A stretch of DNA of 32,000 nt, taken from NCBI RefSeq assembly GCF_000018785.1, contig NC_010163.1, positions 240,001 through 272,000 of the forward strand. Reading direction: 5' to 3'. Below, piece after piece: positions 11,403 through 32,000 of this stretch (its first letter is position 1; every line of letters starts with the position of its first letter). The notes beneath the pieces are model-generated. The model was not told the DNA's origin. It ran no database searches and saw nothing but the letters and a program-made list of their open reading frames with translations. Origin of the DNA: Acholeplasma laidlawii PG-8A. Its GTDB lineage: Bacteria; Bacillota_I; Bacilli_A; Acholeplasmatales; Acholeplasmataceae. The position numbers and the translations under genes were made by a program.

Positions 11403-11470
11403 CTTGATTTCTATTTCACCATATGAAAAATTATCAAAATCTTGTATAATAACAAGTGAGGAATAATATT

Positions 11471-12487
11471 ATGCTAATTTATGATTTAACATACGAAGAA
11501 TTAGAAGAATTCATCGTAGAAAACGGCTATAAGAAATTTAGAGCCGATCAAATTTGGAACTGGCTCTATAAACAAAAAATAGAGGCGTTCAGTGAAATGA
11601 ATAACATCCCAGAGGACATCATTAAATTATTGAATGATAATTATACCTTTGCAGGACTTGAAACAGTGATCAAAAATACCAGTGCAGATGGTACAATTAA
11701 GTTTTTATTTGACTTAAAAGATGCGAATCTAATTGAAACGGTATTAATGAGTCATAACTATGGCATGAGTGCCTGTGTGACTACTCAAGTAGGATGTAAC
11801 ATTGGATGTAGTTTTTGTGCATCTGGTGTATTAAAGAAAAAAAGAGACTTAACAGCAGGTGAAATTGTTGCACAAATCATTCGTGCAGAAAAAGAATCTG
11901 GTGTGAGAGTGTCTAGTATTGTTATTATGGGTATTGGTGAACCATTTGATAACTATAAGAACTTTGTTAAATTTATTAGCATTGTAAATCACCCTAAAGG
12001 ACTAGCAATTGGTGCAAGACATATTACAGTGTCTACATCTGGTTTAGTACCTAAGATTAAAGAATTTGCTCATTTAGGTATTCAAGTAAACTTAGCGGTT
12101 TCGCTACATGCACCGAATAATGAAATTAGATCTAAATTAATGAAAATCAATGATAGATTCAAAGTTGAAGAAGTCGTAGATGCAATCAAATACTATATTC
12201 ATGTTACTAACAGAAGAGTTACAATTGAATATATTATGATTCAAGATTTAAATGATAGTGTAGAAACTGCAGTAGAATTAGCTAAACTCTTAAAGGGTAT
12301 GAATGTCTATGTGAATTTAATTCCATATAACACCGTTAAAGAAGCAGATTATCAAAGATCAAGTCTTGAGAATCGTTTAGCATTCCACAAGACTTTAAAA
12401 GAACATAAAATCACTGCAATTTTAAGAAAAGAACAAGGTCATGACATTAATGCTGCTTGTGGCCAATTAAGAAGTCAAAATCTATAA
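11471..12487 (+). CDS. rlmN: 23S rRNA/tRNA (adenine-C2)-methyltransferase RlmN (radical SAM)
   Basis: Carries [16 protein letters not shown] and a C-terminal ACGQL motif. I prefer ATG 11471 (AGGA at 11459-11462) over the GTG at 11456, which lies within the RBS. Confidence 0.93.
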
Positions 12488-12503: not shown

Positions 12504-13457
12504 TTGAATAAAGCACGTGTAATTAAATTAATCGGAGGCTTATATAGCTTTAAAGACCTTAAGACGCAAACAGTGTATGAAGGTTATGCAAAGGGTAAAT
12601 TTAGAAAGGTGAGAGTGGATAAAGACTCAAGCTTTAATAAGAACATCACAAAAAGCACTAAAAAAGATGTCAAAGACATCGTTTTAAGTCCTAAAGTTGG
12701 TGACATTATCCATTATAGTTTTGAATCTGATCAGTACATGATTACTGAAGTGCTTGAAAGAAAAAATGAACTTATTAGACCAGATGTTGCAAACATTGAT
12801 CAAGTATTATTGGTCTTTTCGGCCATGAGACCGGATTTTAGTTTTAATTTATTGGATAAATTTCTAGTGATATTAAAACATCATGAATTAACACCTGTTA
12901 TTGTGGTATCTAAAGTAGACTTAATGACGGATGAAAATTTAAAATCTCTTAAAGAAGATTTAAAATTTTATGAACCATTTTACGATATACATTATGTTAA
13001 TAGTAAAGCACGCATTGGTATTGATACATTAGATGGTATATTTGAAGATAAAATCACGATTTTAGCAGGTCAAACAGGCGCAGGCAAGTCAACACTTTTA
13101 AATGCACTTAGACCTGAACTAGAATTAAAAACTCAAGAAATATCAGATGCTCTTGGTCGTGGAAAGCACACAACCAGACATTCTGAACTCTACGAGTTTG
13201 GTGGTGGGTATATTTGTGATACACCAGGATTTAGTAAAGTAGACTTTGAATTTCATGATTATACGACACTAAAAGACTACTTTGTAGACTTTGCTAAGTA
13301 TAGTGATCAGTGTAAGTTTGGTCATAGTTGTTTACATATCAACGAGCCTAATTGCATGGTTAAAGAAAAAATCAAATCAAAAGAAATATTACAATCAAGG
13401 TATGATAGTTACTTAAATTTCGTAGAAATATTAAAAAATAGAAAAGAAAAGTATTAG
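12504..13457 (+). CDS. rsgA: Ribosome small-subunit-dependent GTPase A
   Basis: 317-aa ORF with a TTG start 12 nt after aaggag. It has circularly permuted GTPase motifs (VSKVDL, GQTGAGKSTLLNAL, DTPGF) and a C-terminal Zn cluster C..H.C.H..EP.C. Confidence 0.93.
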   Translation: MNKARVIKLIGGLYSFKDLKTQTVYEGYAKGKFRKVRVDKDSSFNKNITKSTKKDVKDIVLSPKVGDIIHYSFESDQYMITEVLERKNELIRPDVANIDQVLLVFSAMRPDFSFNLLDKFLVILKHHELTPVIVVSKVDLMTDENLKSLKEDLKFYEPFYDIHYVNSKARIGIDTLDGIFEDKITILAGQTGAGKSTLLNALRPELELKTQEISDALGRGKHTTRHSELYEFGGGYICDTPGFSKVDFEFHDYTTLKDYFVDFAKYSDQCKFGHSCLHINEPNCMVKEKIKSKEILQSRYDSYLNFVEILKNRKEKY

Positions 13458-17461: not shown

Positions 17462-18801
17462 ATGTCAAAGTTAAAGGTTAGAATCGTAGATCCACATACG
17501 CTCATGCTTGAAGAAACTGGTCAAGTTGGAGACACGATAGACTTAAAATCTCTTCATTCTGTGGATGAAACTTTCATCATGGAACGTATTAAATCTCAAC
17601 AAGATGAAACTTATAATCGCTTACTACAAGGTGTTATCAAAGAAAACCACTCACAAATTCAATTAAAACTTAATGAACAATTAAGAAACTTTGAACTAGA
17701 AAAAAATAAACTGATACAGGATAAACGAGACTTGGAAGGTAGATTGTCTTCTCAAGTCGAGTTAAGTAAAAAGAATGAACAAATTCTTACAAATGCTCTT
17801 AAATCAGAATTTGAATTAGAACGTCAAAGATTGAATAATGAAATTCAAACAATTGAACTTAAAATTAAGCAAAATTTGGAAAATACCTATAAAGACCAAA
17901 TAAATCAAAAAGTTACTTTAATTCAATCTCTACAGGCTGAGAAAGAAAAAATGATTATAGAACATCAGCTACAATTAAACCAAAAACTAGCAAAATTAAA
18001 TGATGATATTTCTATAAAAGAAAAAGAAATTGAAGCATTAAAGAGAGAAAGAAGTTCAAGAAATATTAAAACTATAGGTGAGAATCTAGAAATCTGGTGG
18101 ATGAGCAGTTCAAAAATGTGTCTCTTTATGGATTTAAAACCTCTACATTTACTAAAGATAACTTGGTCATCAAAACAGAAGGTGATTCTAAAGGTACAAA
18201 AGGTGACTACATTTTTAAAGTATTTAACAATGAGTCCCATGATATCTTATTAACAAGTGCCATGATAGAAATGAAGAGTGAAGCACTAGAATCTGAAAAC
18301 AAAAAGAAAAACTCAGATCACTATAAGAAATTAGATGATGACAGAAATAAGAAAAAGCTAGAATATGCAATCTTAGTAAGTGAGCTAGAGTATAATTATG
18401 AATCAGATGCTCCTATATTTTCTGTACCAGGTTATGAAAAAATGTATGTTGTTAGACCTCATTTTTTCATCACCTTATTAGGTATTTTAGAATCTATCGG
18501 TATGAAGTATGCCGACATTATAACAAACAAAGAAATCCAAAAAATAGAGTTCCAAGAATCAGAAAAAATTCTTCAGGATTTTGAAAAGTTCAAAGAAGAC
18601 ATTATTGGAAACTCTATTAGACATATAACAACACAACTAGAGAACATAAAAACTAAAACAAATACCATTATTTCCAGTGTAGAAGCTATACAAGAAAGTG
18701 TTCGTGTTATTTTAGATTCCCACTTAAATACAGTGAGAAGTAAAATTGAAAATTATTCTATTAGACGTGTCGTTAAACATATTGATAAAATACAAGATTA
18801 A
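17462..18801 (+). pseudogene. DUF2130-family protein (N-terminal coiled coil plus C-terminal PD-(D/E)xK-like domain), interrupted by a 1-nt frameshift near 18098-18100
   Basis: Two overlapping ORFs (17462-18253 and 18097-18801) join into one protein of about 446 aa. The junction reads ..IGENLEIW|(C)DEQFKNV.. if one base is restored in tgg-tg_-gat-gag. The C-terminal part carries GDYIF...IEMKSE. Confidence 0.75.
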
Positions 18802-18811
18802 TCATTTAAAC

Positions 18812-18842
18812 CAGCCTAGTTTATTTTAAATTGGGCTGTTTT
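18812..18842 (+). terminator. Weak terminator after the DUF2130 gene
   Basis: 5-6 bp stem cagcc(18812-18816)/ggctg(18834-18838), a 17-nt loop, then tttt. Confidence 0.35.
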
Positions 18843-18935: not shown

Positions 18936-19538
18936 ATGAAGAAAATATTATTAATGATATTACTTTCATTTACACTGGTACTTGTAGCATGTACTGGTGA
19001 TAACGAAGGTGATAAGGATAATGAGCCAACAGCTCAAGAAATTTTTGATCGAAAATTCGAGTTTTTAGAAGCGAATAACTATGATCTAGAAATTAAAATT
19101 AGAGATCATCAAACACTATTAGATACAGTGGTTCAAATGTCTTTTGATGGTACTAAAATCAGATATGTAGATGCAGATTATATAGCATATTATGATAACT
19201 CTGGTGCTAAATCAAAGATGTATGTGAAACAAGGCGATGAATATGTTGTAAGTGAATCAAATTTCAAATCTTCAAGTTTATTATATTATGGATTTGAATT
19301 TGACCAGTTTGATGCTAATGGGGATACGATGTTTATTATGAAGTCTGACCAATACAGTACACTTGATTCATTTATTGGATTAGAAGATGGTGTGACAAGT
19401 ATTTCTAGTCTTCAAGTTAGAGTGGATGAAAATCATTTAACACAAGTAATATTTGATATCACAGTCGGTGAAACTGTATATTTAGTGACATTAACTATCT
19501 CAAATATCGGACAAGTTTCACTTGTCTTACCGGCATAA
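18936..19538 (+). CDS. Lipoprotein of unknown function
   Basis: 200-aa ORF with RBS agaggga. It has a signal peptide with the lipobox LVAC|TG (MKKILLMILLSFTLVLVAC). I recognise no domain. Confidence 0.75.
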   Translation: MKKILLMILLSFTLVLVACTGDNEGDKDNEPTAQEIFDRKFEFLEANNYDLEIKIRDHQTLLDTVVQMSFDGTKIRYVDADYIAYYDNSGAKSKMYVKQGDEYVVSESNFKSSSLLYYGFEFDQFDANGDTMFIMKSDQYSTLDSFIGLEDGVTSISSLQVRVDENHLTQVIFDITVGETVYLVTLTISNIGQVSLVLPA

Positions 19539-19554: not shown

Positions 19555-21117
19555 ATGAAAAAAATATTAATCACAATATTTGTATCTATCATGCTTATTT
19601 TATCTTTTACACCAAGTACTCAAGCTCAAGAACTTTTCAGATTTGAGCACCAACTTAGTGAAAGAAGATATGTAGATGGTATCGAACACATTAAACGTGT
19701 AGGTACGATGACTTATGGTGAAGAAGTCACTTCACAACATTATAACTATTTAGGGGTTAACGTTAAAACAACTGATTATAATATCATAGCTAGTGATAAC
19801 TATAGACCTTATGAATGGGGTATGTCTAATTTAGTTGCACATATTGAAACTGCTAAACAAAGATTTCCTCATCTAGATTTTGTTGGTGGTGTTAATGGTG
19901 ACTTTTATGATATCAATAATACCGGCCGTGCATCTAATACACATATTGTAAATTTTGAAGTTAAGCACCGTGGACCAACGAATGGACGAAATGCAGTAGG
20001 GTTTACAGATGATGGCGATATGGTTTATGGCACCCCATCATTTTTAGGGCAACATTTAAACATATTAAATGAATATAAAGAACTTAAGATGAGATTAAAG
20101 ATTGATCGTATCAATCAATTACCTCAAAATGATTTAGAAATCGCTATTTTCCACCAAAACTATGCATCAGAAATTCCTGCTGATTTTCATAAAGTGATCA
20201 TTAACGCTAGTGATTTAAAATCAGATGCAAGTGGTAACATCAACTATTCTAAAGGGGTCTTAGATTCAAAAACAACTGATGCTCATACAATGGAAGAAAA
20301 GACTTTTGTTTTAGTGGGTAAGGCATTCCAAGATGATAACTTAATTACCAGTTCAGATACCATCTTAGTTCAAGAACTATTAGGAAATGGTTTTGAAAAT
20401 GTTAGAAACGCTATTGGAACCGGCCAATTACTCGTTAAAGATGGTGCTGTACAACATGCAGCATTTAAGAGTTTACCAAGTAATAATATGGCACACTTTA
20501 GACACCCTAGAACAGCTATCGGCCAAAAAGCCGATGGTACAGTATTCTTTATTGTAGTTGATGGTAGAGATGCTTTATCAGGTAAATACGGTGTTAAATA
20601 TAGCGAATTAGGTGAACTCATGAAAATGCATGGTGCTGTCACTGCCTTTAACTTAGATGGTGGTGGTTCATCAACCATGTTACTAAGAAATAGTGAAACA
20701 GGTGAGTATGAGGGATTAAACACATTCTCTGATGGTCATATGCGTTCAATTTCAAACGGTTTACTATTTGCAAGAGGAGACCTTGAACCTGTATTTGTAG
20801 AAATACCTTACCCAGATACAAGAACTCCATTTGAAGCACCAACTGGATTATTTATAGATTCTGAAGGTGTATTCCACTTTACTGGTAATAGTGAACATAT
20901 GGAATATGTGTTAAAAATCAATGGTAGAGAACAATATTTAACAAAAGAAACAATTTCTTTACTACTTGCACCTGGGCAACATGAAATTCAAGTTCGTGTT
21001 AAAGGTAATGCTGAATATTCTACCTCACCATTTAGTGAATCTTACACATACAATGTACACAAAAATGATGTAAAAATCATTCTTGATCTCATTAGAAACA
21101 TTGCTCAAGGTAATTAA
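19555..21117 (+). CDS. Secreted phosphodiester glycosidase family protein (NAGPA / DUF2233-like) with a C-terminal Fn3-like module
   Basis: 520-aa ORF with RBS aggggg. Sec signal peptide ends ..STQA|QE. Family motifs: GGVNGDFYD, HPRTAIGQKADGTVFFIVVDGRD and FNLDGGGSSTM. Confidence 0.85.
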   Translation: MKKILITIFVSIMLILSFTPSTQAQELFRFEHQLSERRYVDGIEHIKRVGTMTYGEEVTSQHYNYLGVNVKTTDYNIIASDNYRPYEWGMSNLVAHIETAKQRFPHLDFVGGVNGDFYDINNTGRASNTHIVNFEVKHRGPTNGRNAVGFTDDGDMVYGTPSFLGQHLNILNEYKELKMRLKIDRINQLPQNDLEIAIFHQNYASEIPADFHKVIINASDLKSDASGNINYSKGVLDSKTTDAHTMEEKTFVLVGKAFQDDNLITSSDTILVQELLGNGFENVRNAIGTGQLLVKDGAVQHAAFKSLPSNNMAHFRHPRTAIGQKADGTVFFIVVDGRDALSGKYGVKYSELGELMKMHGAVTAFNLDGGGSSTMLLRNSETGEYEGLNTFSDGHMRSISNGLLFARGDLEPVFVEIPYPDTRTPFEAPTGLFIDSEGVFHFTGNSEHMEYVLKINGREQYLTKETISLLLAPGQHEIQVRVKGNAEYSTSPFSESYTYNVHKNDVKIILDLIRNIAQGN

Positions 21118-21212
21118 TATTAGGCATAAAAACATATTAATATTTAAACCTATCTATGCTACACTTATGCAGTAAACTATTTAAAATTTTATCTTTAAAC
21201 ATATATGATGAA

Positions 21213-21226
21213 TGAAACCGTTAAAC
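21213..21226 (+). promoter_or_regulatory. cre-like 14-mer TGAAACCGTTAAAC upstream of murR
   Basis: 12/14 match to TGWNANCGNTNWCA. It is inverted relative to the site at 21283-21296, with 56 nt between them. Confidence 0.35.
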
Positions 21227-21282
21227 CTCACACAACCGCCTCTTAAATATCATTTAGAAGAAAAAAGTGAATGTGTGATTAA

Positions 21283-21296
21283 TAAAAACGGTTTCA
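21283..21296 (-). promoter_or_regulatory. cre-like 14-mer TGAAACCGTTTTTA (minus strand) over the -35 region of the murR promoter
   Basis: 13/14 match to the cre consensus. It ends 4 nt before the extended -10 at 21301-21309. Confidence 0.45.
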
Positions 21297-21300
21297 CTCA

Positions 21301-21309
21301 TGTTATAAT
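21301..21309 (+). promoter_or_regulatory. Extended -10 promoter (TGtTATAAT) of murR
   Basis: Perfect TGnTATAAT 35 nt upstream of the ATG at 21344. RBS tgaggtg at 21328-21334. Confidence 0.55.
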
Positions 21310-21343
21310 ATAGATGAGGAAGATAAATGAGGTGTAGTGATAA

Positions 21344-22189
21344 ATGAGTGTAATGTTAAACATGCTGAAAAATAAAGAAGCACTAAGTATGGCTGAACGT
21401 ATTGTTCTTGATTATTTAATTGAGAATAAGACGTTGCTCAAAGATTTTAGCGTGGAGAAAATTGCAGAGGCGGCTTACACATCCCCGGCATCGGTTGTAA
21501 GAATGTGTAAAAAGTTAGGTTATAATGGTTTTAAAGACTTTAAAATCGATTTTATTCTTGCAAACTCTAAAGTAGAGATTCCTGAAACAAGTGAATACAC
21601 TGACGTTATTTTAATTAAAGATCAAAACAATGGAAAAAAGGCAATTGAAAATAATATTCGAGCACTAGAAGAAACCATTAATCTATATGATGAAAAAACG
21701 TATACCAAAGCTGCATCCTTAATTATGAATGCTAGAAAAATCTTAATCTTTGGTAAAGGATCAAGTTTCTTAGTATGTAAAGACTTAGAAATGAAATTAA
21801 GACGTATTAATAAATTTTGTGTGGCACAAGGTGAATCACATGACCAATTTGTGGATGCATCCTTTATTAATAATAAAGACGTCGTAATTTTCATATCAAA
21901 CTCTGGTAAAACTAAAGAAATTATTTCCTCAGCATTACTTGCTAAAGAAAATAAAACACCAATTATTAGTATCACAAGAATTGGTTCAAGCATCCTTGCC
22001 GACATTTCGGATGTTGTGTTATACACTTCAGCATTAGAATCAGAATTTAGAAGTGCTGCGATGACTTCACGTATTTCTCAGATGTCCGTGGTGGATGCAC
22101 TTTATGCAAAATGTGCATACACAGATATAGATCGTTCGATTCAAGCACTTGAGACAACATATAGAACAATTAAAAAATTTAAAAGATAA
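21344..22189 (+). CDS. murR: MurR/RpiR-family transcriptional regulator (N-terminal HTH_6 plus C-terminal SIS sugar-phosphate-binding domain)
   Basis: 281-aa ORF. It has the HTH segment (SVEKIAEAAYTSPASVVRMCKKLGYNGFKDFK) and SIS motifs (IFGKGSSFLV, VVIFISNSGKTKE). The murR symbol is assigned by context with anmK only. Confidence 0.8.
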   Translation: MSVMLNMLKNKEALSMAERIVLDYLIENKTLLKDFSVEKIAEAAYTSPASVVRMCKKLGYNGFKDFKIDFILANSKVEIPETSEYTDVILIKDQNNGKKAIENNIRALEETINLYDEKTYTKAASLIMNARKILIFGKGSSFLVCKDLEMKLRRINKFCVAQGESHDQFVDASFINNKDVVIFISNSGKTKEIISSALLAKENKTPIISITRIGSSILADISDVVLYTSALESEFRSAAMTSRISQMSVVDALYAKCAYTDIDRSIQALETTYRTIKKFKR

Positions 22190-22197
22190 TTCAAATG

Positions 22198-22228
22198 AGG
22201 GCACCTATAAAATAGGTGCCCTTTTTTT
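22198..22228 (+). terminator. Strong rho-independent terminator after murR
   Basis: 11-bp stem agggcacctat(22198-22208)/ataggtgccct(22212-22222) followed by TTTTTT at 22223-22228. Confidence 0.85.
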
Positions 22229-22300
22229 GAAAACATTTTTCTAAGTGTGAAAGAATCTAACGAAATTAAGCGCTTACAAAAATATAGTAAGACTTTACTA

Positions 22301-22319
22301 TATAATGAAAACGTAACCA
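22301..22319 (+). promoter_or_regulatory. -10 box TATAAT (22301-22306) of the anmK operon, overlapped by the cre-like 14-mer TGAAAACGTAACCA (22306-22319)
   Basis: This is the only good -10 between the murR terminator and anmK. The 14-mer is a 12/14 match to the cre consensus and covers the predicted +1. Confidence 0.45.
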
Positions 22320-22335
22320 AAATACGAGGTGGCAT

Positions 22336-23484
22336 ATGAACCAATCGAAACTTGCTTGCGGTATTATGAGTGGTACATCATTAGATGGTATAGATGTTGC
22401 AATAGCAACAATTTCAGGTACTGGTCTTAATACAAAAATTGAACTCATCGTAGCAGAAACTTTTCCTTATCCCAAGGATATCTTAGAGAAAGTGAAACTG
22501 GCTATTGATAATGAACTAAGGGTAAGAGACGTATCGAGTCTCAATTTTGAACTTGGTAGACTTTATGCAGACTGTGTGATTAAGTTATGTAAAGACAACA
22601 AGCTAAGTCCTTCAAGTTTGAGTTTTATCGCATCGCATGGACAAACTGTCTACCACCAAGGTGCTACACAAGATGGAAGTAATCCAAACACACTTCAATT
22701 AGGTAGTGGATCTGTGATTGCAGGGTTAACCCAAACAACTGTCGTCTCTGACTTTAGAGTAGCAGATATGATTGCAGGTGGCCAAGGGGCACCCCTTGTT
22801 CCTTTTGTAGATTATATTTTACTATCAAATAAAGATAAAACACGTATCATTCAAAATATTGGAGGTATCTCTAATATTACAGTATTACCAAAGACTCAAC
22901 ATGAAAAAGATGTATACGCCTTTGATACAGGTCCAGGTAATATGATGATTAATTATGCGATGGAATATTTCTTTAATAAACCTTATGATGCATTCGGCGA
23001 GACTGCTAAAAAAGGAAACCTTATTAAGGCATTATATGATGAAATACTTCAACACCCATTCTTAAAACTACAACCACCTAAATCATGTGGTAGAGAAGAA
23101 TTTGGTGTGAGTTTCACAAAAGAGTTAATAAAAAGATATCATAATCATACAAGAGAAGACATCTTACATACACTCACCGTAGCGACAGCAGACACGATGG
23201 TTAAAGCTATAGAACAATTTGTTTTAAATAAACACGAAGTAGATGAACTGATTATTTCCGGTGGTGGTGTTCATAACACCTTTATGATGGATCAATTAAA
23301 GAAAAAACTACACCCAATACACGTCTTATCCACAGATGATATTGGTTTGTCAAGTGATTTTAAAGAGGCTCTAGCATTTATTGTTTTAGCCAATCAAACA
23401 ATGTATCAAGAACCGTCCAATCTACCTACAGCAACTGGTGCAAAAAAAGCTGTCGTACTTGGTAATGTTTCTTACTACAGATAA
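22336..23484 (+). CDS. anmK: Anhydro-N-acetylmuramic acid kinase (anhydro-sugar kinase family)
   Basis: 382-aa ORF with RBS gaggtgg. Motifs: GIMSGTSLDGIDVA near the N-terminus, NIGGISN, FDTGPGN, and GGGVHN near the C-terminus. Confidence 0.88.
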   Translation: MNQSKLACGIMSGTSLDGIDVAIATISGTGLNTKIELIVAETFPYPKDILEKVKLAIDNELRVRDVSSLNFELGRLYADCVIKLCKDNKLSPSSLSFIASHGQTVYHQGATQDGSNPNTLQLGSGSVIAGLTQTTVVSDFRVADMIAGGQGAPLVPFVDYILLSNKDKTRIIQNIGGISNITVLPKTQHEKDVYAFDTGPGNMMINYAMEYFFNKPYDAFGETAKKGNLIKALYDEILQHPFLKLQPPKSCGREEFGVSFTKELIKRYHNHTREDILHTLTVATADTMVKAIEQFVLNKHEVDELIISGGGVHNTFMMDQLKKKLHPIHVLSTDDIGLSSDFKEALAFIVLANQTMYQEPSNLPTATGAKKAVVLGNVSYYR

Positions 23485-23499
23485 AAAAAGGGGCTAAAC

Positions 23500-24798
23500 A
23501 TGAATAAAAAATTAAAATTAGTAATTATTGGTGCAGGATCAAGTTACACACCAGAATTATTTAAACACATCATATTAAACTATGAAGATTTAAAAGTAAC
23601 TGAGATTGCACTAGTTGATTTAGAGGATAATCAAAACAGATTAAACATTATAAATGATTTTGCACACAGAATGTTTAAGAAGCATAATATTTCAATGGCT
23701 ATTTCTCAATCAATAAATAGAAGAGAAGCTTTAGTTGATGCAGACTTTGTACTTATTCAAATTAGAGTGGGACGTATGGAAGCAAGGTACTTCGATGAAA
23801 CTGTTCCTGCACAATTTGAAATGTTAGGACATGAAGCAATTGGTATCGGAGGGATGTTTAATGCACTAAGAACTATCCCAGTAATCTATAAAATTATTGA
23901 AGATATTAAAGAACTTGCACCTAAGGCATGGGTTATTAATATTAGTAATCCTACTGGAATCATTAGTGAAGCAGTATTTAGATTTGCAGAGTTTGAACGC
24001 TACATGGGGTTATCAAGTAGTCCAAATCAAGCAACAAAAAGTATCATTGAAAAATTAGGTGCAAAACCTTCTGAAGTTGTGCCTTATTTTGCGGGATTAA
24101 GTGAATTATCATTTATCTCAAAAATATATCATAAGAGTAAAGATAAACTGCCTAAACTATTAGAAGAAGACTTTTGTCCATCTAAAAGATTTATGGCACC
24201 TGAAAACCTAAAACAGCTTAAATTATACCCGCATCCAAACTTAAAGGTCTATTATCAATATGATATTGCAGTACCTGAGTTTTTAGAACATATTAGAAAT
24301 AATCAGATACGTACAAATGAAGTTATTCAAATAGATGAAGAATTATTTAAACAATATAGTGACCCTTCAGTAGGTGAAGTACCTAAAGATATTGAGAAAA
24401 GATTAGGTCATGATTATGCAGAAACAGCGATCCAAATCATTGATTCTATGGTGAATAATAAAAAGAACTATCACGTCATTAATACAGTCAATCGTGGCCA
24501 TATTGTAGGAATTCCAGATGAAACATCTATAGAAATCACTTCACGTATTACAAATAAGGGTCCGATTCCGGTCCATATTGGTGAACTACCACTCCAAATA
24601 CGTGGTATCGTTCAACATCTAAAAGCTTATGAAGAATTATTATGTGATGCGATATATGAAAAGAATTTGAATAAAGCATTACTTGCATATCAGGTACATC
24701 CTTTATCTAAATCATTTATTACAACTAAACATGCATTTGATGCATTATATGAAAAACATAAAAACTTACTAACATACTATGGAGCGTACAACAAATGA
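23500..24798 (+). CDS. Glycoside hydrolase family 4-like NAD-binding protein, divergent (6-phospho-glycosidase LicH/CelF-like fold)
   Basis: 432-aa ORF with RBS aagggg. Rossmann motif KLVIIGAGSSYTPE and WVINISNPTG are present. It appears collinear with LicH as I recall that sequence, but GLCN becomes GLSS and GLNH becomes GLSE. Confidence 0.8.
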   Translation: MNKKLKLVIIGAGSSYTPELFKHIILNYEDLKVTEIALVDLEDNQNRLNIINDFAHRMFKKHNISMAISQSINRREALVDADFVLIQIRVGRMEARYFDETVPAQFEMLGHEAIGIGGMFNALRTIPVIYKIIEDIKELAPKAWVINISNPTGIISEAVFRFAEFERYMGLSSSPNQATKSIIEKLGAKPSEVVPYFAGLSELSFISKIYHKSKDKLPKLLEEDFCPSKRFMAPENLKQLKLYPHPNLKVYYQYDIAVPEFLEHIRNNQIRTNEVIQIDEELFKQYSDPSVGEVPKDIEKRLGHDYAETAIQIIDSMVNNKKNYHVINTVNRGHIVGIPDETSIEITSRITNKGPIPVHIGELPLQIRGIVQHLKAYEELLCDAIYEKNLNKALLAYQVHPLSKSFITTKHAFDALYEKHKNLLTYYGAYNK

Positions 24799-26009
24799 AA
24801 CTAAACTATTTTGGAACTGATAAACCACTGAATTACTTTAATACAGATAAACAAGTCGTGATACCTGAAAAATTTAACTTAAAACCATTTAGAGCATTTT
24901 GGATATCTAATGTCTTAAATATTGATTTACCAAATATGAAAGATCCATCTTATAAAGATAAAGTCATAGAAATGCTAGACACCGCTAAAGCATATAACAT
25001 GACAGCAATCTTTTTTCAAGTGCGTACAACAAATGATGCTTTCTATAAATCCAAGTTAAATCCATATTCTAGATTCTTAACTGGAAAAGAAGGGGAAGTA
25101 CCTTTATTTGATGTATTAGAGTTTGTTATTAAGGAAGCTAAAAATAGAAGTTTAGAAGTTCATGCTTGGTGTAATCCATATCGCGTAAGTATGAAAACTG
25201 ATATGACTAAGTCTGAGTATTTAAGTACACTGGATGATTTAAACTTTGCTAAAAGACATCCAGAGTTTGTGATAACTGATAAAAATGGTCAACTTATCTT
25301 AAACCCTGCAAAAGAAGAGGTGAAAACTTTCATTATCGATTCTATGCTAGAAATTGCAGACAACTATGATGTAGATGGTATTCACTTTGATGATTACTTC
25401 TATCCATATGCAGGTTTAAGCGATAGCGATAATGATGCATCTGATTTTGAACAAAGAACAGATAAATCACTAACTCTAGGAGATTTTAGAAGAAATCAAA
25501 TTACGGATGTTATAAGAAACTTAAACAAAGCATTAAAAGAAAAACATCCTAATTTAAGATTTGGAGTATCTCCATTTGGTATATGGAAAACTAAAAAAAG
25601 TGATGAATTAGGTTCTAATGTAGATCCACAATGCAGTCAATCTTATGATAATCAATATGCAGATAGCTATTTATGGATAAAAGAAGGCATAATTGACTAC
25701 ATCGTACCACAACTTTACTGGGATTTTGAGCATAAACTAGCACCATTTGCTGATTTGGCTTTATGGTGGGCAGAGGTATGTAAAGGTTCTAATGTGGATT
25801 TATATATTGGTCATGGTCCATATAGATATGGTGAAAAAGGTGGATATGAAAATCCATATGAAGTCGTAAATCAGCTTAAATTTGCTAATCAATTTGATAA
25901 TGTAGTTGGTAATGTATTCTTTACTTACAAGACATTTATCGATGAAACAAAACAACAACAAGGTATGCATCTTGTTAAAAAATTACTGAATGGAAGTGAG
26001 GATGTTTAA
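24795..26009 (+). CDS. GHL10 / DUF187 (YngK, Cwp19 catalytic-domain family) glycosyl-hydrolase-like protein, no signal peptide
   Basis: 404-aa ORF with an ATGA overlap with the GH4 gene. Motifs: FRAFW, HAWCNPYRV, DGIHFDDYFYP, FGVSPFGIW and VPQLYW. It visibly resembles the C-terminal domain of the next ORF across these motifs. Confidence 0.8.
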   Translation: MKLNYFGTDKPLNYFNTDKQVVIPEKFNLKPFRAFWISNVLNIDLPNMKDPSYKDKVIEMLDTAKAYNMTAIFFQVRTTNDAFYKSKLNPYSRFLTGKEGEVPLFDVLEFVIKEAKNRSLEVHAWCNPYRVSMKTDMTKSEYLSTLDDLNFAKRHPEFVITDKNGQLILNPAKEEVKTFIIDSMLEIADNYDVDGIHFDDYFYPYAGLSDSDNDASDFEQRTDKSLTLGDFRRNQITDVIRNLNKALKEKHPNLRFGVSPFGIWKTKKSDELGSNVDPQCSQSYDNQYADSYLWIKEGIIDYIVPQLYWDFEHKLAPFADLALWWAEVCKGSNVDLYIGHGPYRYGEKGGYENPYEVVNQLKFANQFDNVVGNVFFTYKTFIDETKQQQGMHLVKKLLNGSEDV

Positions 26010-29000
26010 TGAAGAAAGTAATTTTACTATTATTAACACTCGTATTAACATTAACTTTAATACCGACAAACGAAGCACATGCTTATCCAGAACCTGAGGT
26101 TCTAACTTCACCTGGTGAATTTAGAGCAACCTGGATAACCCATTTTATTGGTAGTATGCCTGCATACTCAACAGAACAAGATTTTAAAAGTGAAGTAAAC
26201 TCCATATTAAATAATATGGAAGCGAATAATTTAAATGTCGCAATCGTACATTTTAGAACACATAATAATGCACTTTATAAATCTGAAATTAACCCAGTTG
26301 CAAGTTGGTTTGCAACAGTAGACTTTGATGTCTTTGATCCAATGGCTTACTTTATTGAAGAAGCACACAAAAGAGGGATTGAATTTCATGCATGGTTAAA
26401 CCCTTACCGTGTACTTTCTACGTATCAAAGAGGTACCATTCCGGCAAGTAACCCACAAAGTAACCCTGCAAACCTTTTATCAAACAAGGAAGGTACTGCA
26501 CACATTTTAAACCCTGCATTACCAGTAGTACGTGAGCACGTTGTAAATACGATATTAGAAATTATTGAAAACTATAATGTGGACGCAATCCACTTTGATG
26601 ATTATTTCTACATGGAAATGAACAACGGTGGTATTTTAAATGACCCAGACCAAGCTTTATTTTTATCCAATCCATTAGGTCAACCAAATACTGTTGCTGG
26701 CAAAAGTAACTGGAGACGTACTCAAATTAACACTTTCATTGAACAGGCATCTCAAGCTATTAAAGACTTTAACCAAGCCAATAATCGCTATGTTCAGTTT
26801 GGGATATCTCCAACAGGTATTTATAGAAATGGTGATGGTGAAGTTACCTATGACCAAGACGGAAAACCTATTACAAATGGTTCGAAAACACAAGGTCAAG
26901 AACACTATGCATCTTATTTATTTGCTGATACAGTGCACTGGATTAGTGAAGGTTGGTTAGATTATATTCTTCCTCAAAGTTATTGGGCGAGTACCCATTC
27001 ACTTGCAGGATTTGATAAAGTCATGGGATGGTGGGATAAAGTTGTAAGATACTTAGATGTTAATCTATATTCAGGCATTGGACTTTACCTTGCAGATGCA
27101 GGCATTGCTTCAAACGTCTATTCATGGCGTGATAATCCAGAAGAATTTAGTAATCAAATGGAATTTTTACATTCTTTAGAATCAAATCAAGGATTTTCAA
27201 TTTATTCTTATAACATGATAAGAGATGCAGGTTTAAACTTTAATAGACCTTCACAAGCAAACCTATTTAATGCAAGAGATGATCATTTTCAAACAAAAAC
27301 TGTTTTACCACCATTAAAAAGTATGACACCGGTGCATCTGCCTGCTGTTTCAAATGTGATACATAATCCTGCAAATGGGTTATTAACGTTTGATGCACAG
27401 AGTGATGCTAAATTCTACTATATCTATAAATCCAGTAATCCATTAAACTATGTGGATGCTGAAATTATTGATGTTATACCAAATGATGGTCAAACTACAA
27501 TTACTTGGAATTCTAATGACACATCCACTACAAACAATTATGGTGTACGTTCTATTTCTTATACCAATCATTTAAGTCCTGCATTTGAAAGCAGTATAGA
27601 CGCACCATCGCATGAGTTTACTGGTACATTTGATGGTGTTAGATTTACATCACAAGTAGAACTAGAACTTAGTAGTGCGTATGATATCTTTTATAGTTTA
27701 GACGGTAATACATGGGAAAGTTATACAACGCCTATTCGTATTATCACAAATGGCCTAAATACAATCTACTATAAAGCAGTGGATAATTTAGACAATGAAT
27801 CTTTCGTAAAAGTTTTAAATTTCTATACGGAAATTAAAAATGAAGTACTACCAACAATTGCAATTAATGGTACACCATCTGGTACAAGTTACTTAGTAGG
27901 TACTAAAATTGAGATAACATCACCTGAGCATAATATTTGGGTCAAGATAAATCATGGCAGTCCAGGTACTTGGGTACCGTACGAGGGTCCTATCACTTTA
28001 ACATCAACAGGTAATTATGCAGTATTTGCTAAAACAATTGATGATGGTGGTATTGAATCTGCTGAAATTCAACAAAATTTACGTATTGTCTCAAGTTACA
28101 CTACACCAACACTTGAAATAGCAGGTGATGGTGTAGATCCAAACTATGACTGGTTAGAAATTACCATTAACTTCGATCAAAATGCACCCGAACCAAGATA
28201 TCGAATGAATGGAGGAGCTTGGATACAATATGTAGAACCGATTTTATTTGAACAAGTTGGTCATTATACTATGGAATATCGTAATGGACCACTAGAGCCA
28301 ATATATAGTAAAACGTTTAACATTGTAGAAGGTCCAGGAGAAGTTACTGTTGACATTGAAGGTAACTTAGTGGAAGGTACATATATTGGACCTGTCACAG
28401 TTACTTTAACGCCTAATCAATCAACAGATAAAATAGAATATAGATTATATAATGGTCAAAATTGGACTGCATGGTCTAATTACACATCACCAATTGAGAT
28501 TGCTACAACAGCAAATCATAGAGTGGCTTACCGAGTAACATCTCAATCAGGTATAGTTTCTGATGATGTAGAAATTAGAGTACCAGTATCTATTCCAATT
28601 ACCGAAGACAATCCATTCGTCATTAGAAATGGACAAAATGTCTATTACTATCAAACAAATACACCGGTTGCACTACCAACAACATACACAGAAAAAGATA
28701 AAGAAATACGTGCTGTTTGGGTTGCTACTGTAGCGAATATTGATATCACACAGTATGATAATGAAGCAAACTACAAGAACCAAATTATTAGTATACTAGA
28801 ACGTATGAAAGAACTTAAATTCAATACGATGTTCTTCCAAACAAGACCAATGAATGATTCATTCTATCCATCTGAATATGCACCAATGTCAAGATTCTTA
28901 TCTGGTACAGAAGGTGTAGGCGTAGGTTGGGATGTCTTAGAATTCTTAATTACTGAAGCACATGCACGTGGCATAGAAGTCCACGCATGGATGAATCCTT

Positions 29001-29995
29001 ACCGTGTAGCGAGTGGTTCTACAGCATCTATTGAAGATCAATTAGCACTACTACATGATTCAAACTTTGCAAAACAAAATCCATCATATGTAGTTCAAGA
29101 TAAGGGCGGTGCACTTATCTTAAATCCAGGGATACCTGAGGTTAGACAGTATTTATATAATATCGTCGATGAGATAATGGAAAACTATGCAATAGATGGT
29201 GTTCATTTTGATGATTACTTCTATAGTTATAGTGGAACAGAAGACAGTCAGGATGCAGATGCATTTCTAAATTACAATCCAAATAATTTATCACGTGATG
29301 ACTGGCGCCGTGAAAATGTTAACATGTTTGTGAAAACTATTTATGAACGTGTTGAAGCACATAATGAAGCAAATGATATGCATGTGAAGTTTGGTATTTC
29401 TCCATTTGGAATTTGGAGAAATAAAACTCAAGATGCTCTTGGTTCTAACTCGCAAGGTCTATCTAGCTATTCAGCTCAATATGCAGATTCTAGAAAATGG
29501 GTTAAAGAAGGCTGGTTACACTATATTATTCCTCAACTATACTGGCAATTTGATCACTCAACAGCACGTTTTGCAGATTTAGTGGACTGGTGGGTTGACG
29601 TGGTTAAAGATACCAATGTGGACTTAATTATTGGACAAGGTTTCTATAGATATGCAGAAAACTCCAATAATTGGACAAATGAATCTGAGTTCTTAGAACA
29701 ATTAAGATATATGTCACAATATGATGAAATCATTGGTAGTTCTATTTTCTCTTATAAAACGCTAAATTCTAATCATGCACTAGTTAGTGCAGCACTTGCT
29801 AGATTAGAAGGGCATTATTGGACTAAAAATGTAGAACATACATGGGAAACACATATGAATGATGAAGACCCGACACCAGAACCTACACCAGATACACCAG
29901 CAAACTTTGATATTGTTATATTTATATCAACAGTTTCATCATTTGTAGTATTATTGGGTGTTGTTATATTCATTGTTGTAAAGAAGAAGAAATAA
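26009..29995 (+). CDS. Large surface protein: signal peptide, GHL10 domain, Fn3-like module, four beta-sandwich repeats, second GHL10 domain, Pro/Thr linker, C-terminal TM anchor
   Basis: 1328-aa ORF with a TAATG overlap. Signal peptide ends ..NEAHA|YP. GHL10 motifs occur twice (HAWLNPYRV/DAIHFDDYFY and HAWMNPYRV/DGVHFDDYFY). The linker is DEDPTPEPTPDTP and the anchor is FDIVIFISTVSSFVVLLGVVIFIVVKKKK. Confidence 0.85.
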   Translation: MKKVILLLLTLVLTLTLIPTNEAHAYPEPEVLTSPGEFRATWITHFIGSMPAYSTEQDFKSEVNSILNNMEANNLNVAIVHFRTHNNALYKSEINPVASWFATVDFDVFDPMAYFIEEAHKRGIEFHAWLNPYRVLSTYQRGTIPASNPQSNPANLLSNKEGTAHILNPALPVVREHVVNTILEIIENYNVDAIHFDDYFYMEMNNGGILNDPDQALFLSNPLGQPNTVAGKSNWRRTQINTFIEQASQAIKDFNQANNRYVQFGISPTGIYRNGDGEVTYDQDGKPITNGSKTQGQEHYASYLFADTVHWISEGWLDYILPQSYWASTHSLAGFDKVMGWWDKVVRYLDVNLYSGIGLYLADAGIASNVYSWRDNPEEFSNQMEFLHSLESNQGFSIYSYNMIRDAGLNFNRPSQANLFNARDDHFQTKTVLPPLKSMTPVHLPAVSNVIHNPANGLLTFDAQSDAKFYYIYKSSNPLNYVDAEIIDVIPNDGQTTITWNSNDTSTTNNYGVRSISYTNHLSPAFESSIDAPSHEFTGTFDGVRFTSQVELELSSAYDIFYSLDGNTWESYTTPIRIITNGLNTIYYKAVDNLDNESFVKVLNFYTEIKNEVLPTIAINGTPSGTSYLVGTKIEITSPEHNIWVKINHGSPGTWVPYEGPITLTSTGNYAVFAKTIDDGGIESAEIQQNLRIVSSYTTPTLEIAGDGVDPNYDWLEITINFDQNAPEPRYRMNGGAWIQYVEPILFEQVGHYTMEYRNGPLEPIYSKTFNIVEGPGEVTVDIEGNLVEGTYIGPVTVTLTPNQSTDKIEYRLYNGQNWTAWSNYTSPIEIATTANHRVAYRVTSQSGIVSDDVEIRVPVSIPITEDNPFVIRNGQNVYYYQTNTPVALPTTYTEKDKEIRAVWVATVANIDITQYDNEANYKNQIISILERMKELKFNTMFFQTRPMNDSFYPSEYAPMSRFLSGTEGVGVGWDVLEFLITEAHARGIEVHAWMNPYRVASGSTASIEDQLALLHDSNFAKQNPSYVVQDKGGALILNPGIPEVRQYLYNIVDEIMENYAIDGVHFDDYFYSYSGTEDSQDADAFLNYNPNNLSRDDWRRENVNMFVKTIYERVEAHNEANDMHVKFGISPFGIWRNKTQDALGSNSQGLSSYSAQYADSRKWVKEGWLHYIIPQLYWQFDHSTARFADLVDWWVDVVKDTNVDLIIGQGFYRYAENSNNWTNESEFLEQLRYMSQYDEIIGSSIFSYKTLNSNHALVSAALARLEGHYWTKNVEHTWETHMNDEDPTPEPTPDTPANFDIVIFISTVSSFVVLLGVVIFIVVKKKK
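27611..28582 (+). repeat. Four tandem protein-level repeats of about 65-85 aa (chitobiase/hexosaminidase C-terminal or Fn3-associated-like beta-sandwich) inside the 1328-aa ORF
   Basis: Recurring pattern hydrophobic-x-L/I-x...(I/W)xY..(N)GG/G.W..Y..PI......G.....A.D..G..S across aa ~535-605, 615-692, 700-772 and 780-858. The repeats are diverged at the DNA level. Confidence 0.6.
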
Positions 29996-31038
29996 TGGAT
30001 AGAATTAAATCGTTTTTACAAAAAGGTGTGGATGAAGCGCGTTTTCCTGGCGCACATTATGCACTAATTACAAAAGATAATTTGATCACTGATTTTGTTG
30101 GGTATAAACAACTATACCCAACAAAAGAAGTGCTAAGTGGCGATGAAATATATGACGTTGCATCTCTTACAAAAGTCATATCAACAACAACGCTTATATT
30201 AAAGTTGGTGGATGATAACTTACTTTCTTTAGATACGAGGTTGCAATCAATCTTGGGTAGGTACAAACATCCACATACAACCATAAAAGAATTGCTCATT
30301 CACGCTTCAGGGTTACCTGCTGATGTACCAAAAATTAGAACGGTAAAATCTAAAGAAGCAGTAATGGATATTATTTTTAGTATGGATCTAATTTATGAAC
30401 CAAATACTAAAGTTGTATACTCTGATGTTGGTTTTATCTTACTTGGAAAAGTGATAGAAAAAATGTATGGCATGCCAATTGATGAAGCTGCCCAAAAATA
30501 TATCTTTAATCCTTTAGGTATGTTTGATTCAGGGTATAGACCCGAAGTAGATAGAGTAGCACCAACAGAAGATCATGACGATGATTTTTCAAAAGGACTA
30601 CTTAAAGGTAAAGTGCATGATGAAAAATCCTATTTATTAGAGGGGTTAGCGGGTCATGCAGGTTTATTTTCTACGGTGTATGACATTGGTTTATTTATTC
30701 AAAGTATATTAAATGATAAATTTGTGTTAAGTAAGGATATGACAGATAGACTATTCTTACCTCAAATTACCGATGACTCCTTAGGTTATAAGGTAACTAG
30801 AACACTTGGTTACTTAAAGCCGTATGAAGATAGTTTTGCAGGATCAAAAAGTGATTTTGATAACACAATCGGGCACACTGGTTTTACTGGGTGTCATATG
30901 TTTATTGATAAGAAAAATGACATTGGATTTGTATTATTATCTAATGCTGTTCATCCAAAACGTAGTTTAAATAGAATTATCGGTTTAAGAAATGAATTAG
31001 GCAATATAATTTATGAGATGAAAGTAGAGAAAAAATGA
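29995..31038 (+). CDS. Serine hydrolase of the beta-lactamase/PBP-like family (AmiE/YbbE-like), no signal peptide
   Basis: 347-aa ORF with a TAATG overlap. It has the SxxK motif ASLTK (Ser57, nt 30163-30165), YSD in place of YxN, and GHTGFTG (H-T-G box). Confidence 0.8.
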   Translation: MDRIKSFLQKGVDEARFPGAHYALITKDNLITDFVGYKQLYPTKEVLSGDEIYDVASLTKVISTTTLILKLVDDNLLSLDTRLQSILGRYKHPHTTIKELLIHASGLPADVPKIRTVKSKEAVMDIIFSMDLIYEPNTKVVYSDVGFILLGKVIEKMYGMPIDEAAQKYIFNPLGMFDSGYRPEVDRVAPTEDHDDDFSKGLLKGKVHDEKSYLLEGLAGHAGLFSTVYDIGLFIQSILNDKFVLSKDMTDRLFLPQITDDSLGYKVTRTLGYLKPYEDSFAGSKSDFDNTIGHTGFTGCHMFIDKKNDIGFVLLSNAVHPKRSLNRIIGLRNELGNIIYEMKVEKK

Positions 31039-32000
31039 AGAAAATATTTGCAATATTTAGTTTAGTATTGGTTAGTTTGATTACAGCATGTACTGCAATA
31101 GAAAAACCTGATGAAATTACATTAAGTTTAAGTAGTGGTCCAATCCAATTAGAAGTTGGTAAGACTCATCAGTTATCTATTACTACAAATGATACTTTAG
31201 GTTATGATATTAGTTCATCTAATCATGAAGTAGTAACCGTATCAAATACAGGGTTAGTTACTGCCTTAAAAGAAGGTACTTCAGTAGTTACTGTAACATC
31301 TAAGACTAATGAAGAAGTATCTAAAAGTGTCAACATCCATGTAACTAAAACATATAACTTAGTGATTGAAGAGCCATCCACATATTTATGGGCTGGACAA
31401 ACACTTCAATTAAGTTTTGAAACATCTGGTGAGGAAGTTACATTTAAATCAGACAATGAAGCTGTTGCAACAGTGGATAATAACGGTTTAGTTACGGCAG
31501 TAAGTCCAGGTAACTTTAAAATTACAATGACATTAGCATCAGATATTTCTGTTAAAGCAGAAATTAGTTTAGTAGTGTATGATGAAACATCAACCATTTT
31601 ACTAGAAGGTGACTCTAAGTTAAATGTGGGTCAAACAACAAAGTTAAGTGCCATTTTAGGTCCTGAAACTGCAGCACCTGCTTTAGCATGGTCATCTAGT
31701 GATGAGTTCGTTGCTACAGTAGATGATGAAGGTACAATCACCGCACATAAATCTGGTGCTGTTACAATTACAGCAACTTCATTAACCTCTACAGAGGTGA
31801 GTGCAACGCATTCGATTCTAATTGTTAATGAACTAGTAGTCGATGGTGAAGCAAAAACTGGTGATAAAGTCGTCGTTGAGGATTTAGAATTTGAGTTTGG
31901 AACGACTTTATTTAATACTTTAGAAGCAGCACTTGATACTGCAACTGATGGCGCGCATATTTATTTAAAAAATCTTGAACTTTTAACACTTACTATACTA
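31035..32000 (+). CDS. Lipoprotein with three Big_2 (bacterial Ig-like group 2) domains, 5' partial (continues beyond the window)
   Basis: ATGA overlap with the upstream gene. The frame is open for all 322 codons to the window end by manual translation. Lipobox LITAC (MKKIFAIFSLVLVSLITAC). Three repeats of the G.T.QL....(S)SN..VATVD..G.VTA...G...ITA pattern. Confidence 0.8.
   Translation, partial: MKKIFAIFSLVLVSLITACTAIEKPDEITLSLSSGPIQLEVGKTHQLSITTNDTLGYDISSSNHEVVTVSNTGLVTALKEGTSVVTVTSKTNEEVSKSVNIHVTKTYNLVIEEPSTYLWAGQTLQLSFETSGEEVTFKSDNEAVATVDNNGLVTAVSPGNFKITMTLASDISVKAEISLVVYDETSTILLEGDSKLNVGQTTKLSAILGPETAAPALAWSSSDEFVATVDDEGTITAHKSGAVTITATSLTSTEVSATHSILIVNELVVDGEAKTGDKVVVEDLEFEFGTTLFNTLEAALDTATDGAHIYLKNLELLTLTIL

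Follow-up and report, generated by a model that had tools for sequence, protein, structure and literature searches.

What use could a bacterium without a cell wall have for a set of genes that take peptidoglycan apart? The question is raised by a 32,000-nucleotide stretch of Acholeplasma laidlawii PG-8A (contig NC_010163.1, positions 240,001 to 272,000; the whole stretch is called the window below, and positions are counted from its first letter). Between positions 21344 and 32000, this window carries a gene for an RpiR/MurR-family regulator, followed by genes for the kinase AnmK, a GH4-family protein, two GHL10 proteins, a PF00144 serine hydrolase and a Big_2 lipoprotein. A. laidlawii belongs to the order Acholeplasmatales of the Mollicutes, a class without cell walls (PMC10868615; PMC10805103). 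A first-pass annotation, made from the letters of the window, had guessed at a wall-less, Acholeplasma-type host, and the origin of the DNA bears this out.

Our analysis indicates that this region, together with an adjoining pair of genes that includes a NAGPA-family enzyme, is likely to form the regulatory section and front end of a peptidoglycan utilisation locus of about 45 kb that serves to break down foreign walls. The best reading of the locus is an extended form of the Bacillus subtilis type of N-acetylmuramic acid (MurNAc) catabolic system, not a new pathway. Since the host, according to the literature on Mollicutes, makes no peptidoglycan, the substrate would come from other bacteria, as their walls or as wall debris. 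The earlier view that the locus concerns peptidoglycan and 1,6-anhydro-MurNAc (anhMurNAc) is retained, and foreign peptidoglycan as its target follows from the wall-less host.

Gene organization in the window

The list of open reading frames (ORFs) reproduced the map from murR to the Big_2 gene, with all coordinates and junctions of positions 21344-32000 as first described, and all Pfam families predicted for the window proteins by the first-pass annotation were recovered with strong E-values. The regulator gene murR (21344-22189, + strand) encodes HTH_6 (PF01418, 5e-16) and SIS (PF01380, 1e-25) domains, the architecture expected of MurR. A 146-nt gap with a terminator and a promoter region lies between its stop codon and anmK. 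The intrinsic terminator (22197-22223, + strand), with a 12-bp stem, 6 GC pairs and a TTTTT tail, was the strongest among the 13 kb scanned and sets murR apart from the anmK operon.

The six genes that follow are also on the + strand. The first, anmK (22336-23484), encodes a predicted cytoplasmic anhMurNAc kinase (PF03702, 3.6e-104; NCBIfam NF007142), and the gene for the GH4-family protein (23500-24798; PF02056, 2.3e-47; PF11975, 3.3e-35) begins after a gap of 15 nt. The latter overlaps by 4 nt (ATGA) with the gene for a cytoplasmic GHL10 protein without a signal peptide (24795-26009; PF02638, 7e-65), which in turn shares 1 nt (TAATG) with the gene for a double-GHL10 surface protein of 1328 amino acids (aa) (26009-29995; GHL10 in two stretches, 1.3e-102). 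Another 1-nt overlap leads to the gene for the cytoplasmic PF00144 serine hydrolase (29995-31038; 7.7e-46), and an ATGA overlap of 4 nt joins this gene to that of the Big_2 lipoprotein (31035-32000, continuing past the window), of which the N-terminal 322 aa, with the lipobox LITAC and three Big_2 stretches, fall inside the window.

The locus beyond the window

Locus L001 was read for 10 kb past the window (positions 19995-32000 of the window are 100% identical to LS483439.1), and the distal part was followed in other strains of A. laidlawii at 87-96% nucleotide identity, locus L011 being that of strain 8195. The walk downstream used homologues of a large binding protein and then those of a 180-aa NamZ fragment; the latter were fragmentary proteins, among them P0243 on a 122.6-kb contig, along which the walk went on. 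Because L001 and L011 overlap, the genes form one contiguous, co-directional string.

At full length, the Big_2 lipoprotein comprised 1009 aa (L001:11041-14070), with four Big_2 stretches, a Beta_helix domain at 343-469 and an Amidase_2 domain (PF01510) at 794-927 (1.4e-18). The first-pass annotation had correctly recognized a Big_2 lipoprotein; it saw only the N-terminal third of the protein and missed the extracellular Amidase_2 domain, which lies about 2.4 kb past the window end. The Amidase_2 motifs VHDTA, HQHF and KHCP were readable in the translation, and their His, His and Cys residues are presumably the zinc ligands. By family, the 1009-aa lipoprotein is a predicted extracellular MurNAc-L-Ala amidase. 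Orthologues of 999-1174 aa that carry the Amidase_2 domain were present in all relatives sampled.

The lipoprotein gene is followed by a gene for an 812-aa protein (L001:14221-16659) that has a signal peptide, is anchored at its C terminus and gave no Pfam match above the gathering threshold; a strong promoter-like site precedes this gene and a terminator follows it. A 523-aa lipoprotein binding protein comes after it on L001, and then a membrane-anchored binding protein of 971-974 aa (L011:2784-5708; L001:18502 onward), composed of an N-terminal transmembrane (TM) helix, about 550 aa of CBM35-like sequence and an SBP_bac_1 domain. The larger binding protein was 57-61% identical across Acholeplasmataceae and Izimaplasma, which exceeds the conservation of the enzymes of the locus. 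Next in order are two ATP-binding cassette (ABC) permeases, then a 605-aa NHL/TPR-like anchored protein, a Yip1 membrane protein and an 860-aa, N-terminally anchored DUF5696 protein (L011:7549-12583), and then two more permeases; all four permeases belong to the BPD_transp_1 family. The string continues with DUF624, NamZ, GH3, a BadF/G-type kinase, a MurQ-type SIS protein, a GNAT acetyltransferase, NagB and a ROK-like protein.

The catabolic enzymes were assigned in strain 8195: NamZ (NamZ_N 9.4e-85, NamZ_C 5.8e-42), the GH3 beta-N-acetylhexosaminidase NagZ (NF003740, 207.7 bits against a cut-off of 207), the MurNAc 6-phosphate (MurNAc-6-P) etherase MurQ (TIGR00274, 367.8 bits against 302) and NagB (TIGR00502, 257.6 against 236.9), with the BadF/G kinase also present. 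Both NamZ and NagZ lacked signal peptides in A. laidlawii. The absence of NagZ, MurQ and transporter genes reported earlier holds inside the 32-kb window; permeases, binding proteins, NamZ, NagZ, the kinase, MurQ and NagB are encoded on the same strand, 15-25 kb further downstream, and the non-canonical reading arose because the window ends before these standard enzymes. No gene of a phosphotransferase system (PTS), such as MurP, was found within the string of about 45 kb, which has four permeases and two binding proteins instead, joined in relatives by a MalK-type ATPase. The extracellular proteins of the locus all carry lipid or TM anchors and are free of wall-binding modules.

A related Acholeplasma contig (L010:18730-20444) carries further genes past the ROK-like one, for a PIG-L deacetylase, an HTH_30 protein, a MalK-type ABC ATPase and an MR_MLE-family enzyme, which may act as an L-Ala-D/L-Glu epimerase on the stem peptide.

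GHL10 proteins

The 1328-aa protein consists of a signal peptide, a GHL10 domain, about 430 aa of beta-rich repeats of the CHB_HEX_C/OmpL47 type (OmpL47-type barrel domain, 2.4e-22), a second GHL10 domain and a C-terminal anchor made of a hydrophobic helix followed by KKKK. This layout agrees with the earlier proposal that the large enzyme is held by a C-terminal TM helix and not by wall-binding modules. Orthologues of 1288-1355 aa were found in all relatives sampled.

When compared with Clostridioides difficile Cwp19 (5oq2), the cytoplasmic GHL10 protein scored 290 bits (2.5e-85) and the C-terminal GHL10 domain of the 1328-aa protein 304 bits (2e-89). Thirteen active-site residues have been proposed for Cwp19 (PMC5765458). 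The cytoplasmic protein kept 12 of the 13, the N-terminal surface domain 11 and the C-terminal surface domain all 13; W36, W127, R132, D195-D196-Y197, S250, Q295, Y297 and G328 (Cwp19 numbering) were conserved in all three domains. These are close matches, and the domains can be called Cwp19-like, as had been suggested. Cwp19 cuts peptidoglycan to 1,6-anhydro-muropeptides and some reducing-end products (PMC6016235). The pairing of AnmK with GHL10 in a wall-less host lends indirect support to lytic-transglycosylase chemistry, and the cytoplasmic GHL10 protein would cut imported glycan oligomers.

AnmK and the PF00144 hydrolase

AnmK matched PF03702 with 349 bits over model positions 4-366 of 367 and passed the NCBIfam equivalog NF007142 with 591.6 bits against a cut-off of 435. 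Its nearest sequences in the Protein Data Bank (PDB) were the Lipomyces levoglucosan kinase 4zxz (225 bits) and proteobacterial AnmK proteins (171-194 bits; 3cqy, 194). It is the gene context, with MurQ, NamZ and Amidase_2, and not the sequence that favours anhMurNAc as the substrate.

The PF00144 protein has the motifs SLTK (SxxK) and HTG in its translation and no signal peptide. PF00144 is the family of AmiE/YbbE. With no signal peptide, and with PBP4B (YfeW) as the best NCBIfam match (125.7 bits, below the cut-off), the protein does not correspond to a secreted exo-amidase orthologous to AmiE. It may remove or trim the stem peptides of imported muropeptides. The gene was absent from A. hippikon, and exactly this protein is encoded on 18 public contigs.

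Altered metal site of the GH4 protein

The GH4 protein had been given a role in trimming muropeptides, and this role is now doubtful. In the PDB, the protein comes closest to the 6-phospho-beta-glucosidases 5c3m and 1s6y (2e-88), and the dinucleotide-binding motif is present (IIGAGSSYTPE, aligned with TIGGGSSYTPE of 5c3m). At residues 170-175, however, the protein reads GLSSSP where the canonical sequence is GLCNVP, and at residues 199-202 GLSE where it is GLNH, so that Cys is replaced by Ser and His by Glu. We take the replaced Cys and His to be the Mn2+ ligands seen in the GlvA and BglT structures. GH4 enzymes of the 6-phospho-beta-glycosidase branch require NAD+, Mn2+ and a 6-phospho substrate (PMC10628242). 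Across 120 aligned clade members, the first site was Cys in 103 and the second was His in 99. Ser and Glu at the two sites were confined to an A. laidlawii-like subclade, and A. hippikon was intermediate. The A. laidlawii protein probably does not work as a canonical GH4 glycosidase and may be inactive or altered in function.

Loci of relatives with a canonical GH4 protein have the BadF/G kinase gene between anmK and the GH4 gene, and the Acholeplasma loci have no kinase gene there. This arrangement suggests that the BadF/G kinase and GH4 act together in one coupled step, which A. laidlawii is losing or modifying.

Three further ideas about the GH4 gene were rejected. It is not needed as a missing NagZ, as cytoplasmic GH3 NagZ and MurQ are present downstream. 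GH4 chemistry requires a free C3-OH, which MurNAc does not have, and an etherase role was therefore dismissed on mechanism. In A. laidlawii GCA_001729655.1, the gene appears as two ORFs; the split results from two differences in homopolymer length (A6 to A5 and T5 to T6; L002:3512 and L002:4286) in otherwise identical DNA, and is probably a sequencing error and not a pseudogene.

Conservation in Acholeplasmatales and Izemoplasmatales

The gene order was kept in A. hippikon, in Tenericutes bacterium GWC2_34_14, in two Izemoplasmatales-type contigs and in further contigs; an Izemoplasmatales metagenome-assembled genome (MAG) was among the neighbourhoods read. The shared order is rpiR, anmK, (BadF/G kinase), GH4, GHL10, double-GHL10, (PF00144), Big_2/Amidase_2, the protein of about 800 aa, the two binding proteins and, farther on, NamZ, where brackets mark genes that are not in every locus. 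More than 25 genes have intact frames and order across two orders at 45-60% amino-acid identity. Among the nearest 120 GH4 relatives, the named sources were nearly all Acholeplasma, Acholeplasmataceae, 'Tenericutes' or Izimaplasma/Izemoplasmatales, together with two generic Bacillota, and the named matches of the large binding protein all came from the Acholeplasma/Acholeplasmataceae/'Tenericutes'/Izimaplasma-Izemoplasmatales groups. Between strains, the ratio of nonsynonymous to synonymous substitution rates (dN/dS) was about 0.12-0.27, a value that rests on few substitutions and on a position-wise comparison that breaks at indels; L001 and L003 differ by 3 bases, and L004 had too few substitutions for firm values.

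Regulation

A regulator gene of the rpiR type stood at the matching position in 4/4 relatives sampled there (loci L005, L006 and L007). Its effector is presumed, from the gene context, to be MurNAc-6-P. A candidate operator, made up of two inverted 21-nt arms that are 86% complementary, flanks the murR promoter; one arm lies at 21202-21222 and the other, at 21287-21307, is directly next to the murR -10 box. A related motif, AATGAAAACGT, at 22304-22314 overlaps the -10 box of anmK. The motif was not more frequent in the window than expected by chance (4 seen against 2.3 expected; 22 of 100 shuffles reached 4).

NAGPA pair and upstream region

Directly ahead of the murR operon are two + strand genes, one for a predicted lipoprotein of 200 aa with no Pfam family (18936-19538) and one for a secreted 520-aa phosphodiester glycosidase of the NAGPA family (19555-21117; PF09992, 6.5e-35) with an N-terminal signal peptide. 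A terminator-like site (18812-18838) lies before the lipoprotein gene. Only the N-terminal 33-58 residues of the lipoprotein matched other sequences, namely lipoprotein signal regions, and in A. hippikon and Tenericutes bacterium GWC2_34_14, too, NAGPA comes after a gene of 197-212 aa. The pair adjoins the murR operon in three lineages, with the NAGPA gene kept at this place in L005 and L006, and the 200-aa lipoprotein is probably an accessory part of the locus. It is a speculative proposal that the NAGPA enzyme strips phosphodiester-linked wall polymers, for example teichoic acids off MurNAc, and so uncovers the glycan; the literature search yielded no characterised bacterial NAGPA member.

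In the relatives, the genes upstream of murR encode NAGPA and/or an oxidase linked to flavin adenine dinucleotide (FAD) of the D-lactate-dehydrogenase type, with or without the alpha and beta subunits of electron-transfer flavoprotein (ETF); one relative also has a PF01832 glucosaminidase there. The oxidase gene is directly upstream of murR at L006:3291-6686 and L007:3238-6706, both with ETF alpha and beta, and at L005:6357-7760. A. laidlawii has no such oxidase gene at the position directly upstream of murR. D-lactate is the by-product of MurQ, so these genes would fit MurNAc catabolism, and the oxidase may dispose of the D-lactate set free.

Farther upstream, the + strand carries two ORFs that overlap in different frames, one of 263 aa with no family (17462-18253) and one of 234 aa (18097-18801) whose match to the 255-position DUF2130 model is limited to positions 53-253. 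The two may represent a frameshifted or mis-started DUF2130 gene. In the host block still farther upstream, rlmN (11456-12487) is directly followed by rsgA (12504-13457), with no PP2C and PASTA-kinase pair between them, in agreement with the earlier remark that the PASTA kinase is missing from this block.

Proposed route of peptidoglycan utilisation

The following route builds on family assignments and cellular locations; the substrates, the order of the steps and the effector are what we infer from them. Outside the cell, the Big_2/beta-helix/Amidase_2 lipoprotein would strip stem peptides from sacculi, perhaps after the secreted NAGPA enzyme has removed phosphodiester-linked wall polymers. 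The double-GHL10 protein would then cut the glycan in the manner of Cwp19 or DigH, giving fragments that end in anhMurNAc and some with reducing ends. The 812-aa protein and the other anchored proteins to which no role has been assigned would count among this surface attack set. Two ABC importers, one with the 523-aa and one with the 971-974-aa binding protein, would bring glycan oligomers or muropeptides into the cell.

In the cytoplasm, the GHL10 paralogue would shorten the oligomers, NagZ and NamZ would remove terminal N-acetylglucosamine (GlcNAc) and MurNAc, and the PF00144 hydrolase would deal with residual peptide by removing or trimming it. AnmK would convert anhMurNAc to MurNAc-6-P, and the BadF/G kinase would phosphorylate reducing-end MurNAc and GlcNAc. 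MurQ would cleave the lactyl ether to yield GlcNAc 6-phosphate (GlcNAc-6-P) and D-lactate, and NagB would feed glycolysis. The separately transcribed RpiR/MurR regulator would presumably be released by MurNAc-6-P.

Evidence against the proposed route and alternative explanations

E. coli DigH (YddW) is presumably a member of the GHL10 family. It is described as a hydrolase specific for peptide-free (denuded) glycans and of undetermined bond specificity (PMC12288456). The glycosidic specificity of GHL10 is not settled, and this is the first of several points that weigh against the foreign-wall reading. The kinase sequence is about as close to the fungal levoglucosan kinase as to proteobacterial AnmK. 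The regulator fell below every NCBIfam equivalog cut-off (NF012026 MurR, 98 bits against 408; PRK11337, 161 against 378), and the operator motif was not conserved beyond A. hippikon, so that no conserved operator could be defined. Lastly, some MAGs of Acholeplasmatales and Izemoplasmatales encode peptidoglycan synthesis (PMC12786226).

Among the alternatives, the one that survives best is that the locus is an offensive weapon, in which the tethered amidase and lytic enzymes lyse living walled neighbours on contact and catabolism is secondary. The enzymes are indeed on the producer's surface and not freely secreted, Cwp19 drives autolysis in C. difficile (PMC6016235), and a wall-less producer would be immune to its own lysins. 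We nevertheless consider this explanation unlikely: no toxin-delivery or adhesion apparatus was identified, the outer membrane would shield Gram-negative prey, the literature search turned up no lysis phenotype, and the importers, the catabolic enzymes and a regulator of the sugar-phosphate type point to nutrition.

The locus could also be a relic, now without function, of a pathway that a walled ancestor used for recycling. Both Acholeplasmatales and Izemoplasmatales trace back to walled Bacilli (PMC10868615), the core of murR, murQ, nagZ, namZ and the amiE-like gene resembles the B. subtilis recycling operon (PMC8054146), and the active site of GH4 has decayed. This origin would hardly explain how more than 25 genes stayed intact and in order in two orders, how the GHL10 active sites were preserved and MurQ, NagB and AnmK still pass their equivalog cut-offs, or why dN/dS between strains is low (on small counts); the wall-independent anchors on the surface enzymes suggest an adaptation to the wall-less cell. 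A present-day lack of function is thus very unlikely.

Equally to be weighed is another polymer as the substrate, such as chitin or chito-oligosaccharides, an anhydro-glucan handled by a levoglucosan kinase, or a glycan of a host or of the cell's own surface. In its favour, the kinase scored slightly higher against levoglucosan kinase than against AnmK structures, GH4 and GH3 are generic families, and a Deinococcus GHL10-family enzyme is reported to be active on starch (PMC9967864). MurQ, NamZ and Amidase_2, however, are specific to MurNAc chemistry and all belong to the conserved string; the cytoplasmic and the C-terminal surface GHL10 domains match Cwp19 (about 290-300 bits) far better than a generic family match would; and D-lactate-dehydrogenase-like genes adjoin the locus in relatives. 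We regard such a substrate as highly improbable.

The self-contained, non-canonical pathway of the first-pass annotation, in which three GHL10 domains, GH4 and an AmiE-like enzyme take the place of NagZ, MurQ and a transporter, drew on the absence of those three genes inside the window and is hardly credible now that four permeases, two binding proteins, NamZ, NagZ, a kinase, MurQ and NagB are seen downstream in the same string and the GH4 copy is seen to lack both metal ligands.

Comparison with known systems

The nearest counterpart of the locus is the murQ-murR-murP-amiE-nagZ-namZ operon of B. subtilis (PMC8054146). Homologues of MurQ, MurR/RpiR, NagZ, NamZ (GH171) and the PF00144 protein are co-directional in A. 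laidlawii too, and the two systems would share the end of the route, from MurNAc-6-P to GlcNAc-6-P and D-lactate. In B. subtilis, NagZ, NamZ and AmiE are secreted, whereas the A. laidlawii NagZ, NamZ and PF00144 proteins have no signal peptides; the MurP PTS is replaced by two ABC importers, AnmK and a BadF/G kinase; and a role in self-recycling falls away in a wall-less cell. A. laidlawii has in addition the double-GHL10 and cytoplasmic GHL10 proteins, the Amidase_2 lipoprotein, NAGPA, GH4, DUF5696, Yip1, the TPR/NHL protein and the protein of about 812 aa.

With Cwp19 (5oq2; PMC6016235, PMC5765458), the A. laidlawii proteins have in common a TIM-barrel GHL10 catalytic domain, at 290-304 bits. 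Cwp19 is an autolysin that CWB2 repeats attach to its own wall, whereas A. laidlawii combines two GHL10 domains with a TM anchor and keeps a third copy in the cytoplasm. The action of DigH (PMC12288456), in which an amidase comes first and cleavage of the peptide-free glycan second, is matched by Amidase_2 and GHL10 in one A. laidlawii operon. Unlike the A. laidlawii GHL10 proteins, DigH is periplasmic and acts on the cell's own septal wall in division.

The E. coli AnmK-MurQ-MurR system likewise has AnmK, MurQ and an RpiR-type SIS regulator. There, uptake is by AmpG or MurP, whereas A. laidlawii has ABC systems, a foreign source of anhydro-sugars and a regulator that fails the MurR equivalog models. 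Tannerella forsythia (NamZ1/2, MurK, AmpG, MurT; PMC7670621, PMC5790795) also harvests the MurNAc of its neighbours with NamZ-type enzymes and a kinase. Tannerella cannot make MurNAc and builds its own wall with it, an anabolic use, whereas in Acholeplasma the use must be catabolic because there is no wall.

In full-text literature searches, the A. laidlawii genome paper aside, no description of such a locus was found for Acholeplasma, Izemoplasma or other Mollicutes, and the statement that this gene combination has not been described as a unit appears correct.

Implications

A. laidlawii can be cultured, and genetic tools for it are at hand (PMC10805103). A bolder proposal is that free-living Acholeplasmataceae and Izemoplasmatales are specialist wall eaters, which lyse living Gram-positive neighbours on contact and feed on the sacculi by means of the locus of about 45 kb. 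We think this rather unlikely; if it were true, the loss of the wall would let a naked membrane display amidases and lytic transglycosylases without self-harm, and epibiotic predation would be enabled by wall loss.

Loci for the recycling of peptidoglycan are usually taken to be housekeeping for a cell's own wall. A full set for peptidoglycan breakdown, with attack, import and MurNAc catabolism, in two wall-less orders would separate the catabolism of peptidoglycan from self-recycling. The locus would link uncharacterised families, namely DUF5696, the 971-aa binding protein, the anchored protein of about 812 aa and bacterial NAGPA, to peptidoglycan breakdown, and the double-domain surface enzyme and its cytoplasmic paralogue would be natural test cases for the GHL10 family. 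For the free-living relatives of the Mollicutes, which are otherwise called generic fermenters, it would define a concrete niche, with wall debris or living prey as the source of food.

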